From IMG/VR virus record IMGVR_UViG_2751185961_000010: a stretch of 8,956 bases of DNA; one strand, given 5' to 3'. A program made the position numbers and the translations under genes. Positions 1 to 8,956 of this stretch are shown here, one piece after another; position 1 is the stretch's first letter, and every line of letters starts with the position of its first letter. Source of the stretch: a virus. Its lineage: Duplodnaviria > Heunggongvirae > Uroviricota > Caudoviricetes. The notes under the pieces are model-generated. The model saw only the letters and a list, made by a program, of their open reading frames with translations, ran no database searches and had not been told where the DNA came from.

Positions 1-43
1 CAGTAGCGGAGCAGGAAGGACATCTGATGGAAATGGAAGCCAC
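1..43 (-). CDS. insA: InsA (IS1 transposition regulator), N-terminal fragment running off the window
   Basis: Mirror image of the right-hand copy: GTG start at 43..41 on the - strand, identical to the 8779 start. Recalled IS1 InsA N-terminus with zinc-finger-like CPSC...CSHC. Confidence 0.8.
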   Translation of the reverse strand, partial: MASISIRCPSCSAT

Positions 44-98
44 GCAAGCACCTTAAAATCACCATCATACACTAAATCAGTAAGTTGGCAGCATTACC
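1..98 (-). mobile_element. IS1-family insertion sequence, partial; inner end with terminal inverted repeat, element continues leftward out of the window
   Basis: Positions 76-98 are the reverse complement of the IS1 terminal inverted repeat GGTAATGCTGCCAACTTACTGAT. Positions 1-98 are the exact reverse complement of 8724-8821. The adjacent sequence encodes the InsA N-terminus on the - strand. Confidence 0.9.
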
Positions 99-1149
99 CT
101 ATCCTGAGGTGTCCCTTTCTGATGCCAGGACGGCAAGGGATGAAGCCAAAAGGCTTATCGCTGGTGGAGTTAATCCGAGTGAGGTCAGAAAGGCCCAAAA
201 GCGAGAACAGGCGAACAAATGCGGTAACACCTTTGAGGTGATCGCCCGTGAGTGGTATGAAAAACGCCTGGACCGATGGTCTCCCTCATATGCAGAGGAA
301 ATGATAGAGACGTTTGAAAAAGACGTTTTTCCGTACATTGGAGGTAGGCCCATCGCAGAGATTAAGCCGATGGAATTGCTCGCGGTTCTATCCCGTCTTA
401 ATGACCGTGGCGCAACTGAAAAATTGCGTAAGGTTCGCCAGCGATGTGGCGAAGTGTTTCGGTACGCAATAATTACCGGACGCGCTGAATATAACCCCGC
501 TCCTGATCTGGCAAGCGCATTTGCACCACACAAAAAAGAGCATTACGCGTATCTGAAAGTTGATGAGCTACCGGAATTTTTCCGCGTTTTTAATACGTAC
601 ACCGGAAGCCAGATCGTCAAGCTGGGTATGCGATTGTTGATTCTTACAGGACTCCGTCCGGGTGAATTGCGGCAGGCAGAGTGGCAGGAGATTGATTTTG
701 ATAATCGTCTGTGGGAAGTGCCGAAAGAACGAATGAAAATGCGCCGTCCTCATTGCGTGCCGCTTTCAGAACAGGCGATTGCTATTCTGGAACAACTGAA
801 ACACATGACGGGGCAGTATCCGTTTATTTTCCCTGGTCGAATACAGCACAGTAAACCGATGAGTGAAATGGCGATGAACGTGCTTATTCGTCGTATTGGC
901 TATGCTGGGCGCGTTACTGGTCATGGGTTCCGGCATACCATGAGTACAATTTTGCATGAGCAGGGTTATAACTCCGCGTGGATAGAAACGCAGCTGGCGC
1001 ACGTCGATAAAAACTCGATCCGTGGCACATACAATCACGCGCAATATCTGGACGGACGGCGGGAGATGCTCCAGTGGTACGCCGACTATATGGACTCACT
1101 GGAACAGGGCGGAAACGTGGTGCACGGCAAGTTTAGTGTATGTGCATAA
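99..1149 (+). pseudogene. int: P4-family tyrosine integrase, 5'-truncated at the IS1 junction (N-terminal arm-binding domain missing, catalytic domain intact)
   Basis: The ORF (tracked as 85..1149, TTG start inside the IS1 repeat) begins at ...LPYPEVSLSDARTARDEAKRL, which matches P4-like integrases only from about residue 60-65. Catalytic signature present: GLRPGELRQAEW (Arg box), HGFRHT (H-x-x-R), RGTYNHAQYL (Tyr nucleophile). Native sequence starts at 99, immediately after the IS1 repeat. Confidence 0.85.
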
Positions 1150-1678
1150 AAACGACTGGACAAGTATACAGATGTATGCTAACGTACACGGAAAGCTACA
1201 GCTAACATCCTTACAGAGGGTTTTTCACGCAGTTATCCGTCATGTATGGGCGCTCTTTGTAACAACGAAGATTGAGTTTTCTACGCAGCTGAAAAGCTGG
1301 ATGCTCTTTAACAGCCTTTAGTGCTTTCCTGATGCAGGAAAGAATGGTGATACATGCACTATTACAAAGCATGTAATGATTCATCCATGAGGCGGTGGAG
1401 CGCTGGCAAAGTGCTGTTGATCTTTAACATTGATGCGGCGGGATGGTTCGTCCCGCAGTGACCGATAGATTTGCTATCGGGAAACATACAACGATTCAAA
1501 TATGAATCTACGGCGCTGACAAAGCGCAATTGCTCTCTTGTCCGTCCACCATGTACTGAAAAAGCGCTCTTTAAAACTACTGGACGTCACGCCTAATCGT
1601 GTGACCCCGCCGAAAGCGGGAATAGCTCTACCTTGCTGGAGCATACCAACCAAACAATCTGAATTTATCTTATGCAAT

Positions 1679-1710
1679 ACCACAACATGTTTTCATGTTG
1701 TGGTTTTTGT
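1679..1710 (+). terminator. Rho-independent terminator candidate: perfect 11-bp stem (1679-1689 / 1694-1704), 4-nt loop, then TTTTGT
   Basis: ACCACAACATG-TTTT-CATGTTGTGGT followed directly by TTTTGTCG; lies in the non-coding gap about 85 bp upstream of the alpA start. As a perfect DNA palindrome it could alternatively be a dimeric-regulator operator. Confidence 0.5.
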
Positions 1711-1791
1711 CGTGTTCGTAATTTGACGCAAATAAAACTCTTGCTAAGCCACAGGAGGGGATTTCCGCGTCAACATTAAGGAGATTGATAA

Positions 1792-1995
1792 ATGGCTAAT
1801 AACAATTCATTCATCCGTCTTTCTGAGGTTATGCGCCGTACTGGTTACGGTCGCGCATGGATTTATCGCCTGATCAGCCTGGGGCGCTTCCCTAAACCGG
1901 TAAAAATTGGTCCCCGCTCCGTGGCTTTTATTGAAAGTGAAGTCGACGAATGGATTAACCAGCGTATTGATGCTTCTCGCAACAACGCCGCGTAA
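1792..1995 (+). CDS. alpA: AlpA-family phage transcriptional regulator (Vis/excisionase-like, MerR-type HTH), 67 aa
   Basis: MANNNSFIRLSEVMRRTGYGRAWIYRLISLGRFPKPVKIGPRSVAFIESEVDEWI matches the AlpA/Phage_AlpA signature (L.EV....G.SR..IYR.I..G.FPKPVK.G.R.V.W...E...WI). Shine-Dalgarno AAGGAG 8 nt upstream of the ATG. Confidence 0.9.
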   Translation: MANNNSFIRLSEVMRRTGYGRAWIYRLISLGRFPKPVKIGPRSVAFIESEVDEWINQRIDASRNNAA

Positions 1996-2059
1996 TAATC
2001 TTTTGGGAGGGGGATATTCTCCCCCAGCACTAAACCTGATCCGATAGCAGGAGTTTTCA

Positions 2060-7361: not shown

Positions 7362-7374
7362 GTTATAGAAAAAC

Positions 7375-7604
7375 TGTTCACCGCTGTTCACCCTGTGACA
7401 AATACATTTGATATCAGTAAGTTAATGGGTGAATAGTTTTGTAAAACTATTCACCGGAGTGTTCACCCGTTCACCCTTTTGTTTGATTTTTGAACGGCGA
7501 GCGGGTGAACAGGGTGAACAGTTGGTGAACACCTTTACAAAAAGTGTTCACCCTTTAACCTCATGAATTTAAAGATGAAATAGCAAAAGGTGAACAGTTG
7601 AACA
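7375..7604. repeat. Iteron array (P4 type I iteron octamer TGTTCACC / GGTGAACA in both orientations): candidate replication origin (ori/crr-like)
   Basis: Forward TGTTCACC at 7375, 7385, 7460, 7545 and CGTTCACC at 7468. Reverse GGTGAACA at 7504, 7513, 7524, 7589 and GTTGAACA at 7597. Degenerate palindrome GGTGAATAGTTTT-GT-AAAACTATTCACC at 7428-7455. Spacings of about 9-11 bp. Confidence 0.8.
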
Positions 7605-7648
7605 GTCTTTTGGCATAAATTTTTATTTATTCCTTTGAGGAAAATTTT

Positions 7649-8098
7649 ATGACAGAGAAACACGCTAAAAAATCACACTCACCCGCCATCGATTTAACCG
7701 AACAGGGATCTGTTGTGAAGTTCGTATCGGCACGAGGCAGGCCAGTGCTTTTAGTGCCAGGAAAACATCTGCATTACTGCGATGAAAATCATATCCCGAT
7801 CCTGATTGTCTGGAAGCGAACAGTCTACGCCGATGTGACATGGCTGAATGACTCGCTGGTGTTGATACACCGCGACCTGTTTGAGCGTGAAGAATTCCGG
7901 CGAGACATTGAGGATAGGGCAGAAAAAATCTATGAGCAATATGCAGCAAACAGCAAAAGAGCCGCACGGGCAATCACTCACCATTTCATGACGCTGTATG
8001 ACCTGAAAGCAGAAGACGCAGAAAAAGCAGCGTGTGATTTATTTGATATGACAATGGATATTATCCAGGAGTACCGGAACAAGGAGCGCAGACCATGA
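7649..8098 (+). CDS. hypothetical protein (149 aa), translationally coupled to the downstream ssb
   Basis: GAGGA 7 nt upstream of the ATG, preceded by an AT-rich region with a TTGGCA -35-like hexamer. Stop overlaps the ssb start (ATGA). No family recognised. Confidence 0.75.
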   Translation: MTEKHAKKSHSPAIDLTEQGSVVKFVSARGRPVLLVPGKHLHYCDENHIPILIVWKRTVYADVTWLNDSLVLIHRDLFEREEFRRDIEDRAEKIYEQYAANSKRAARAITHHFMTLYDLKAEDAEKAACDLFDMTMDIIQEYRNKERRP

Positions 8099-8535
8099 CA
8101 GCACAGATTGCAGCTTACGGGCGGCTGGTGGACGACCCGCAGGTAAAACAGACCAGCAAGGGTACAAACATGACGCTGGCGAGAATGGCGGTATCCGTAC
8201 CGTGCCATAACGCAGATGACGGACAGGCGACTCTATGGCTTGCCGTAACAGCCTTTGGTAAACAGGCCGACCATCTGGCGAAGCACCAGAAAGGCGACCT
8301 TATCAGCGTGGCGGGTAACATGCAGATAAGCCAGTGGACCGGACAGAACGGGGAGACGCGGCAGGGGTGGCAGGTTATCGCCGACAGCGTAATCAGTGCC
8401 CGTACTGTTCGCCCTGGTGGAGGTCAGAGAAAACACACAGGCCAGCCACAAAACACAGGGGCACAGACCTCATCACGGGGACATCCACCGCAGAATAATC
8501 ACGATGACCTGTTCCCTGACGATATCCCGTTCTGA
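8095..8535 (+). CDS. ssb: Single-stranded DNA-binding protein (divergent SSB, OB-fold, acidic C-terminal tail DDIPF), 146 aa
   Basis: Pattern G.LV.DP......G...........DG..TLW..V.AFGK.A..L.K..KGD...V.G......W..Q.G..R....V, a Gly/Gln-rich linker, and the C-terminal ...DDLFPDDIPF that matches the SSB tip motif (D-D-D-I-P-F). Confidence 0.88.
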   Translation: MTAQIAAYGRLVDDPQVKQTSKGTNMTLARMAVSVPCHNADDGQATLWLAVTAFGKQADHLAKHQKGDLISVAGNMQISQWTGQNGETRQGWQVIADSVISARTVRPGGGQRKHTGQPQNTGAQTSSRGHPPQNNHDDLFPDDIPF

Positions 8536-8723
8536 GCGGTTCGAAAGCTGCTCAGTGTCTTGCAGGTGAGAGTCCTGCCGCAGTAATTGGTTAGTTTGAC
8601 TGCGTAGCGATGGCGTACATGTGGAGGGTGACCGAAGCATGGGAGCAACGCCGGATAAACGTGTCCCCCGATCCAGACAGTGGGCGCGCGCAAATACACA
8701 GCCCGTAACTGACAGTGAACTCA

Positions 8724-8956
8724 GGTAATGCTGCCAACTTACTGATTTAGTGTATGATGGTGATTTTAAGGTGCTTGCGTGGCTTCCATTTCCATCAGAT
8801 GTCCTTCCTGCTCCGCTACTGAAGGCGTGGTGCGTAACGGCAAAAGCACTGCCGGACATCAGCGCTATCTCTGCTCTCATTGCCGTAAAACATGGCAACC
8901 ACAGTTCACTTACACCGCCTCTCAGCCCGGTACGCACCAGAAAATCATTGATATGG
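8724..8956 (+). mobile_element. IS1-family insertion sequence, partial; begins with the terminal inverted repeat and continues rightward out of the window
   Basis: GGTAATGCTGCCAACTTACTGAT at 8724-8746, followed by the InsA start. This is an exact inverted copy of window positions 1-98. Confidence 0.92.
8779..8956 (+). CDS. insA: InsA (IS1), N-terminal fragment running off the window
   Basis: GTG start; translation (M)[58 protein letters not shown] matches recalled IS1 InsA with a few substitutions. Confidence 0.88.

Follow-up and report, generated by a model that had tools for sequence, protein, structure and literature searches.

Inverted IS1 ends bracketing an internal segment of a decaying P4-related genomic island in Shigella sp. 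FC569

Does a sequence that starts and ends in the same end of one insertion sequence represent a discrete mobile unit, or the ordinary consequence of IS insertion into resident DNA? The window analysed here (the whole stretch of DNA under study, 8,956 bp) raises this question, as it carries genes of a phage-like island between two inverted IS1 ends. For a sequence of this kind the first check is whether it is a complete draft contig, and this one is: MECV01000059.1 (8,956 bp), from the short-read draft genome of Shigella sp. FC569, makes up the entire window (positions 1–8,956), with identical gene coordinates in the two (contig locus L008). The window is an internal stretch of a decaying P4-related genomic island with an IS1 copy at each end, which is normal for Shigella. 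These IS1 insertions are of an ordinary, already known sort, and the bracketing IS1 are a generic mark of assembly breaks at high-copy IS and do not point to a discrete unit.

IS1 ends at both edges of the window

A repeat search of the window identified a single 98-nt inverted pair (1–98 and 8,724–8,821; 100% complementary, 8,625 nt between the arms), far beyond chance, which bears out the original prediction that one of these segments is the exact reverse complement of the other. The remaining inverted pairs are ≤32 nt, and those of ≥17 nt are only 75–88% complementary. The main repeat measures only 98 nt because the end of the sequence cuts the left arm, not because homology stops.

The left IS1 end (1–98, minus strand; IS1 positions 1–98) has its left terminal inverted repeat (IRL) at 76–98 and the insA start (GTG) at 52, reading leftward. 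The right IS1 end (8,724–8,956, plus strand; IS1 positions 1–233), also cut by the contig end, begins with the IRL at 8,724–8,746 (GGTAATGCTGCCAACTTACTGAT), followed by insA from the GTG at 8,770. The 233-nt right arm is identical at 232 positions to a 768-bp IS1 of a Shigella flexneri pINV plasmid (mismatch at window position 8,900), and both 8,724–8,746 and the reverse complement of 76–98 are identical to the IRL of pINV IS1, in agreement with the ~23-bp IRL pattern GGTxATGCTGCCAACTTACTGAT. The InsA N-terminus encoded from 8,770 matches Pfam Zn_ribbon_InsA (3.1e-19) and HTH_Tnp_IS1 (5.6e-07) and the NCBIfam IS1 family transposase model (transpos_IS1, 3.7e-13). Both window edges are the same IRL/insA end with insA reading outward, as had been claimed from the terminal repeat and the InsA start. 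IS1 was defined here as an element of ~768 bp running from IRL to IRR, with insA starting ~50 nt from IRL, then insB′ read through a −1 frameshift, and with target-site duplications of 9 bp (8–11 bp); of these, the window shows 98 + 233 nt, with the N-terminus of InsA only, and both copies are assumed to be complete (768 bp).

Shigella reference chromosomes carry 229–348 IS insertions, of which IS1 accounts for 46–73% (Hawkey et al. 2020, PMC7373316), corresponding to a derived load of roughly 105–250 IS1 copies per chromosome, or ~1 per 20–40 kb. At this density an 8.6-kb interval between two IS1 is unremarkable, and the contig stops 98 and 233 nt into IS1 because very many near-identical copies block assembler read-through. 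Contig ends within IS are routine in IS-rich genomes, and where both ends carry the same IS, about half of the contigs look ‘inverted’. The arrangement shares with known chromosomal IS1 insertions in Shigella (PMC7373316) the IRL plus insA end, an insertion truncating a gene (here int) and the many near-identical copies that break short-read assemblies, and nothing substantive differs.

A colinear slice of a P4-related island

The DNA between the IS1 ends (99–8,723, plus strand; 8,625 bp) is an internal segment of a P4-related island, giving one colinear alignment to intact islands: to 2,012–10,629 in E. coli ED1a and three others (L003–L006) and to 2,013–10,629 in a fifth (L007), with 99.83–99.85% identity. 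Four SNPs, a 1-bp deletion and an 8-bp insertion are the sole differences from ED1a (99.85% identity). The intact island is ~15 kb, adjoins tRNA-Gly in ED1a and others, and contains int, alpA, Rha-type genes, a CI/C4-type RNA, a P4-alpha-like primase gene with TGTTCACC iterons, ssb and further cargo. Its right boundary was placed from gene content only (yqeG- and yqeF-like genes), and no 15-mer repeat of the tRNA-Gly 3′ end, as a candidate attR, was found in ED1a. Comparison with the intact islands, one of the checks originally proposed, indicates that the contig is without the 5′ end of int and everything to the right of ssb, the latter running from an MFS transporter to a Q antiterminator in the relatives.

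The P4-type tyrosine integrase gene (109–1,149, plus strand; Pfam and NCBIfam) is 5′-truncated, encoding 346 aa as annotated (ODQ12345.1). About 55–68 N-terminal codons are gone, including most of the arm-binding domain (the Arm-DNA-bind_3 match does not begin until profile position 54 of 83); the intact gene in L005 spans 1,809/1,848–3,062. Downstream are, all on the plus strand, a gene for an AlpA-family regulator (1,792–1,995; Pfam Phage_AlpA, 2.4e-20) and two overlapping genes (2,060–3,305), the 245-aa product of one having a Rha domain (Phage_pRha, 3.2e-22, 79.3 bits) and the 171-aa product of the other giving a weak match to the same family (3.8e-05; 24.6 bits, below the 29.9-bit cut-off). 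The P4 CI-type immunity RNA region (4,391–4,579, plus strand) comprises isrK (4,391–4,467; 52.1 bits) and a C4 antisense RNA (4,492–4,579; 73.8 bits), both above the Rfam gathering score. To the right of the primase region, 7,649–8,535 (plus strand) encodes a 149-aa protein of unknown function and a 146-aa SSB (Pfam SSB, 6.4e-17; phrog_44), the latter identical in ED1a and many E. coli. Among the ORFs of unknown function, PHROGs searches returned only families of unknown function.

The P4-alpha-like primase/helicase gene (5,533–7,361, plus strand; Pfam, NCBIfam, PHROGs and blastn) encodes an intact 606-aa protein in L003–L007, and in FC569 it is split into ORFs of 140 and 498 aa by a frameshift caused by an 8-bp tandem duplication (CAGGTATA twice at 5,814–5,829). 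It carries D5_N/DUF5906/Pox_D5 domains and matches TIGR01613 (‘primase, P4 family’), with 68.9% nt identity to P4 alpha over ~400 nt (blastn). The P4 alpha protein binds the octamer TGTTCACC. Eight matches to this motif (0.30 expected; 0/200 shuffles reach eight) are clustered at 7,375–7,596, a putative P4-type origin (ori/crr-like) that also holds repeat families D6 and D17 and the repeat pairs I7, I8 and I22. As the primase is frameshifted, the replication module is probably dead, weakening the suggestion that the IS1 bracket could mobilise an origin and ssb module.

The segment therefore resembles satellite phage P4 and the P4-like integrative elements of Enterobacteriaceae in its P4-type integrase (Phage_int_M and Phage_integrase domains), AlpA, C4/CI-type RNA, isrK, alpha-like primase/helicase and the TGTTCACC iteron cluster after the primase gene. 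It differs from P4 in having a truncated int and a frameshifted primase in FC569 and in the absence of the capsid-size and late-control genes psu, delta and sid, no such Pfam families being found in the genes called in the window or, from tRNA-Gly as far as the chromosomal flank, in the five intact islands; instead, the island has ssb, two Rha-type genes (one with a sub-threshold match), a sugar-transporter/oxidoreductase pair and a Q antiterminator. The proposal that the IS1 bracket accounts for missing late/morphogenesis genes is rejected, as the intact relatives have none. Nor does it account for the missing att sites: these are absent only because the contig starts ~200 nt inside int, and tRNA-Gly lies 125–165 nt upstream of int in the intact relatives.

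Junctions and their distribution

On the left, IS1 lies within int, ~200 nt past the start of the gene, and on the right it lies 188 bp downstream of ssb. Both junctions are clean, with the change from island to IS1 sequence falling precisely at the IS1 tip. CTATCCTGA and GTGAACTCA, the inner flanks, show no relationship to one another, whether compared directly or as reverse complements, and are therefore not a split target duplication. The left junction is also found in Logan assemblies of SRR3581386 (plus two more samples) and SRR7500945, and the right junction in that of SRR7500935 (plus one more sample). Two Logan contigs (L009 and L010) begin 26–28 nt inside the left IS1 and another (L001) ends 26 nt inside the right IS1, as expected for a repeat branch point with k=31. 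Since the inner junctions are reproduced in independent assemblies of other runs, the two inverted IS1 ends are real, and the predicted location of the island segment between two such ends, both IRL, stands.

A set of 5,426 complete E. coli genomes contains neither junction and no record covering ≥80% of the window, and the left inner junction has no match in GTDB species representatives. Alignments to PLSDB plasmids extend over at most 24% of the window (best 82.4% identity, in the primase region); near-identical plasmid matches cover the IS1 ends only, and a few plasmids share a more distant primase region. The junctions were seen in FC569 and in a handful of related runs alone (at least five sequencing runs) and, given that both sites are absent from complete E. 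coli genomes, are apparently specific to a small Shigella clone. Two partial integrases (P0014 and P0015) considered as candidates for the same junction were rejected, being other alleles or C-terminal truncations.

Origin of the arrangement

A resident island that received two IS1 copies in situ, with the contig broken in both, is the likely explanation, so that the arrangement reflects decay and not a new mobile unit. Two IS1 copies would have landed in the island in this Shigella lineage, presumably during the Shigella IS1 expansion, with their insA (IRL) ends facing the retained segment. Two independent insertions could account for this, as could a single insertion and then intramolecular replicative transposition; the junction sequences would be identical either way, with only the orientation of the segment differing. 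RecA-dependent inversion between inverted 768-bp copies is expected in principle, and Shigella often undergoes inversions between inverted IS copies, with 103 of 114 reconstructed inversions falling on Shigella branches (PMC8072062).

If the island continues beyond each IS1 with 9-bp duplications, the predicted outer junctions are ...GGTGTCTATCCTGA followed by IS1 IRR on the int side and IS1 IRR followed by GTGAACTCAAATCCGCC... on the right. Searches for the int 5′ flank and IS1 IRR separated by a gap of 0–20 nt gave no matches in GTDB representatives or JGI metagenomes, and those for IS1 IRR and the island right flank with the same gap gave none in JGI metagenomes. Exact look-up of 20 predicted fusion ORFs of the int N-terminus with IS1 IRR (covering duplication lengths of 7–12, with three or four alternative starts for each length) identified none in the protein collection, which is weak negative evidence, ORFs of 57–97 aa often being uncalled. 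In four of them (duplication lengths 7 and 10) the IRR was that of K-12, giving a one-residue difference from the corrected versions, which were looked up too.

These absences are compatible with a different and rather less likely history. The inner junctions would be genuine, but one or both IS1 copies would have recombined with a distant site, or transposed to or from one, through an adjacent deletion or through a large inversion involving any other of the >100 IS1 copies, so that the 8.6-kb segment no longer adjoins the rest of the island. The part deleted or displaced would be tRNA-Gly/attL with the 5′ end of int, or the region from the MFS transporter to Q. Such a rearrangement would be favoured by the very high rates at which IS-associated inversions and deletions occur in Shigella genomes (PMC8072062), and also by the lack of the predicted outer junctions (left only in GTDB representatives, both in JGI metagenomes) and of all 20 fusion ORFs. 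However, the negative searches are uninformative, as the source genome is not in the collections and the left inner junction, which is observed, is also absent from GTDB; the short length of the ORFs likewise counts against reading much into their absence, and the commonest outcome of IS1 transposition is simple insertion.

It is highly unlikely that IS1, the 8.6-kb segment and IS1 form a composite transposon, one that moves or once moved in one piece and takes its P4-type origin, its primase and ssb along to new replicons. The geometry fits, with inverted IS1 ends flanking cargo, and there is a precedent in Tn1681, with inverted IS1 copies (PMC7554612). As in Tn1681/Tn9-type elements, IS1 flanks the cargo on both sides, but the cargo here is an in-register, perfectly colinear internal slice of a resident chromosomal island with a boundary inside a gene, and nothing indicates that it has moved as a unit. 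A boundary in the middle of int is what random insertion into resident island DNA would be expected to produce. The unit was not found at a second locus or on another replicon in the 5,426 complete E. coli genomes or PLSDB, the frameshifted primase argues against a working replication module, and the configuration would arise by chance in roughly 10–25% of Shigella contigs ending in IS (estimated from the counts in PMC7373316). That the unit is a functional composite transposon or invertible cassette equipped for P4-type replication (with an iteron origin, an alpha-like primase and SSB) is more improbable still; if it were, a satellite replicon could be transplanted onto other DNA, or the orientation of the island genes switched by IS1–IS1 recombination. 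A single shared target duplication would identify a new IS1 composite transposon with a P4-type replicon.

The least credible explanation is an assembly artefact, with both ends derived from one IS1 on a circular molecule or with one end a chimeric assembler join: the contig is from a draft, its ends lie in a collapsed repeat and the 100% identity of the arms is uninformative as to whether two distinct copies exist, but one IS1 in a circle would give IRL plus IRR, so that form is rejected by the IRL at both ends, and recurrence of each junction in the Logan assemblies, made with a different assembler from other SRA runs, largely refutes the remainder.

With two in situ IS1 copies in a resident island, the outcome would be island decay, leaving int without its arm-binding N-terminus, a frameshifted primase and the right-hand third of the island separated. 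Its significance is small, as a further case of the Shigella IS1 expansion degrading a horizontally acquired island. The primase frameshift itself arose independently of the IS1 insertions.

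IS1 ends at both edges of a draft contig

The one long inverted pair found by repeat search of the window has its arms at 1–98 and 8724–8821 (98 nt, 100% complementary, spacing 8,625 nt); the remaining inverted pairs measure at most 32 nt, and the longer ones among them (at least 17 nt) are only 75–88% complementary. The right arm extends to the window end (8724–8956), and its 233 nt match the start of a 768-bp IS1 on a Shigella flexneri pINV plasmid (IS1 positions 1–233) at all but one position, window 8900. It opens with the IS1 left terminal repeat and encodes the InsA N-terminus from GTG 8770 (Pfam Zn_ribbon_InsA, 3.1e-19, and HTH_Tnp_IS1, 5.6e-07; NCBIfam IS1 transposase, 3.7e-13), so that both window edges are the insA-proximal end of IS1 (IRL), inverted and with insA reading outward, as originally proposed.

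The truncated integrase ORF at 109–1146 (346 aa) exactly matches ODQ12345.1, ‘integrase [Shigella sp. FC569]’, and gene coordinates in MECV01000059.1 (GCA_001722155.1; positions 1–8956) are the same as those of the window. The window is one complete draft-assembly contig, and the apparent bracket therefore consists of two points where the assembler met a repeat. Shigella reference chromosomes carry 229–348 IS insertions each, 46–73% of them IS1 (PMC7373316), from which we compute a load of ~105–250 IS1 copies, or one per 20–40 kb. By our own arithmetic from the same figures, ~20–50% of IS-bounded contigs are expected to carry IS1 at either end, inverted in half of these cases and with both IRL ends inward in a quarter; a contig ending in IS1 on each side is expected behaviour in Shigella. 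Logan assemblies (independent assemblies of SRA sequencing runs) of other runs halt 26–28 nt into the same IS1 tips, the behaviour of a k = 31 graph at a multi-copy branch point. The arrangement is thus an ordinary outcome of IS1 expansion in Shigella, viewed through draft-contig ends, and already known in kind.

Comparison with intact islands

Window 99–8723 is colinear, in one piece, with 2012–10629 of E. coli ED1a (CU928162.2) and of three other genomes or metagenome contigs, and with 2013–10629 of a fifth locus (L007), at 99.83–99.85% identity to the five intact islands. Relative to ED1a, the segment shows four SNPs, has lost 1 bp at 4251 and has gained 8 bp at 5822–5829, and is otherwise identical. 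The intact island follows xdhA, actS and tRNA-Gly and comprises int (404/417 aa), alpA, a 171-aa gene, a Rha-domain gene and small orfs, then DUF4222, primase (606 aa), a 149-aa gene and ssb, and finally genes for an MFS transporter and a GFO/IDH/MocA oxidoreductase, small orfs and a Q antiterminator gene, beyond which lie chromosomal yqeG-like and yqeF-like genes.

This comparison, recommended with the original prediction, placed both IS1 sites. The left IS1 lies inside int, 203 nt past the 417-aa start and 164 nt past the 404-aa start, and has removed most of the integrase arm-binding domain, of whose Pfam profile (Arm-DNA-bind_3, 83 positions) only the part from position 54 onward is matched. 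The right IS1 follows the ssb stop at a distance of 188 bp, and at each inner junction island sequence gives way cleanly to the IS1 tip. About 5.9 kb of island on the right and the tRNA-Gly/attL side on the left are off this contig, where deletion and location on other contigs look the same from the window.

Across the truncated integrase, the longest orf (85–1149) opens with a TTG at 85, inside the IS1 terminal repeat, so that the first five codons of this possible hybrid come from the IS1 end; the deposited annotation begins at GTG 109. Islands at the same tRNA-Gly site (NZ_CM143728.1 and the five intact loci) have the int-to-ssb stretch in common and differ in downstream cargo, with ProQ/FinO and PerC-family regulators in one and the MFS transporter and oxidoreductase in the ED1a type, and a Q-antiterminator-like gene closes all six.

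Origin of the arrangement

On the simplest reading, two separate IS1 insertions would have struck a resident island; equivalently, a single inserted copy could have given rise to the second by intramolecular replicative transposition with inversion. Worked through on paper, both routes, and a later RecA-mediated flip between the copies, would give the same four junction sequences and differ in segment orientation alone, and short-read contigs do not separate double insertion from insertion plus inversion. Completeness of both IS1 copies is assumed here. With inner junctions IRL/2012... and ...10629/IRL, a 9-bp duplication predicts outer junctions, at the far-end repeat (IRR), of ...2020/IRR and IRR/10621.... 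Simple in-situ insertion would accordingly leave ...AAAATGTTGTCGCTGGGTGTCTATCCTGA + GGTAATGACTCCAACTTACTGATAG... on the left, the int 5′ end with the 9-bp duplication CTATCCTGA and with tRNA-Gly and actS upstream, and ...CTATCAGTAAGTTGGAGTCATTACC + GTGAACTCAAATCCGCCTCGTAAATG... on the right, with duplication GTGAACTCA and the MFS transporter gene ~560 nt further on. The left pattern had no match in GTDB representatives or JGI metagenomes, and the right one none in JGI metagenomes, a weak negative given that the source genome is outside those collections (the left inner junction, too, has no match in the GTDB representatives). None of twenty predicted fusions of the int N-terminus to IS1 is on record, which is also weak as short orfs often go uncalled. 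We favor in-situ insertions with island sequence still flanking them as the likely origin; that at least one outer flank has been rearranged or deleted is a less likely alternative. Inversions between IS copies in opposite orientation are amply documented for Shigella, whose branches account for 103 of 114 reconstructed inversions (PMC8072062), and by analogy the configuration would be inversion-prone in principle, as originally suggested.

The same prediction had also seen in the arrangement a composite-transposon-like unit. Tn1681 is a precedent for a composite transposon with inverted IS1 copies (PMC7554612), but here the IS1 copies enclose a slice of the island that is still in register and has one of its boundaries within a gene, neither junction is found among the complete E. 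coli genomes searched, and in PLSDB no plasmid aligned over more than 24% of the window, near-identical plasmid matches being confined to the IS1 ends. The segment gives no sign of movement as a unit, and its transposition as IS1-segment-IS1 is improbable.

An artefact is similarly hard to credit, as the left inner junction is present in Logan contigs from SRR3581386 (contig common to three samples) and SRR7500945 and the right one in SRR7500935 (two samples), making an assembly chimera very unlikely. A single IS1 read around a circular molecule, the other explanation that could have undone the original prediction, is ruled out, since it would present IRL at one end and IRR at the other; IRL at both requires two inverted IS1 ends.

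P4-related modules of the island

Judged from sequence, the integration, immunity and replication modules of the island are P4-related. Like P4, it has a P4-type integrase with AlpA, Rfam C4 antisense RNA (73.8 bits) and isrK (52.1 bits) matches side by side at 4391–4579, as in the P4 CI immunity RNA region, and a primase/helicase with D5_N, DUF5906 and Pox_D5 domains and TIGR01613 (‘primase, P4 family’), with 68.9% nt identity to P4 alpha over ~400 nt. Directly after the primase stop codon, 7375–7596 contains eight exact TGTTCACC octamers (five on the + strand, three on the −; 0.3 expected by chance). We take this octamer to be the P4 alpha binding repeat of ori/crr, and the cluster probably represents the island's own P4-type ori/crr iterons.

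The FC569 primase is frameshifted by an 8-bp tandem duplication (CAGGTATA followed by CAGGTATA; 5814–5829), which splits the 606-aa P4-alpha-like protein into 140-aa and 498-aa orfs. ED1a and the other intact islands lack the duplication. It does occur in an independent Logan contig (SRR7500935) and is therefore not an FC569 sequencing error. The replication module is thus probably inactive, weakening the suggestion that this IS1 configuration could mobilise the origin and ssb. Unlike P4, neither the window nor the intact relatives contain psu, delta or sid (called genes, Pfam and PHROGs). Lack of late/morphogenesis genes is therefore a trait of the island family and not an IS1 effect, so that of the original interpretation the flanking of an island segment by two inverted IS1 ends stands, while its account of the missing genes does not.

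The non-coding interval between ssb and the right IS1 has a full-length match to Rfam ‘group-II-D1D4-4’ (8560–8713; 10466–10619 in the intact locus L005) at 67.1 bits (gathering score 49), ending 10 nt short of IS1. The intact ED1a island has the match as well; there, 6.3 kb scanned around it gave no further Rfam match, hence no other intron domain, and no reverse-transcriptase gene was called, leaving an isolated structured element.

Window 3507–4804, spanning isrK/C4, is called in intact islands as a 424–432-aa ‘Phage_ASH’ orf and in RefSeq as Icd-like pseudogenes; it appears to be a translated RNA locus, split in the window by the deletion at 4251. Upstream of the two RNAs lies a 53-nt direct repeat (3898–3950 and 4174–4226; 74% identity), the copies of which, by analogy with P4 seqA/seqC, may be candidate targets of the CI-like RNA.
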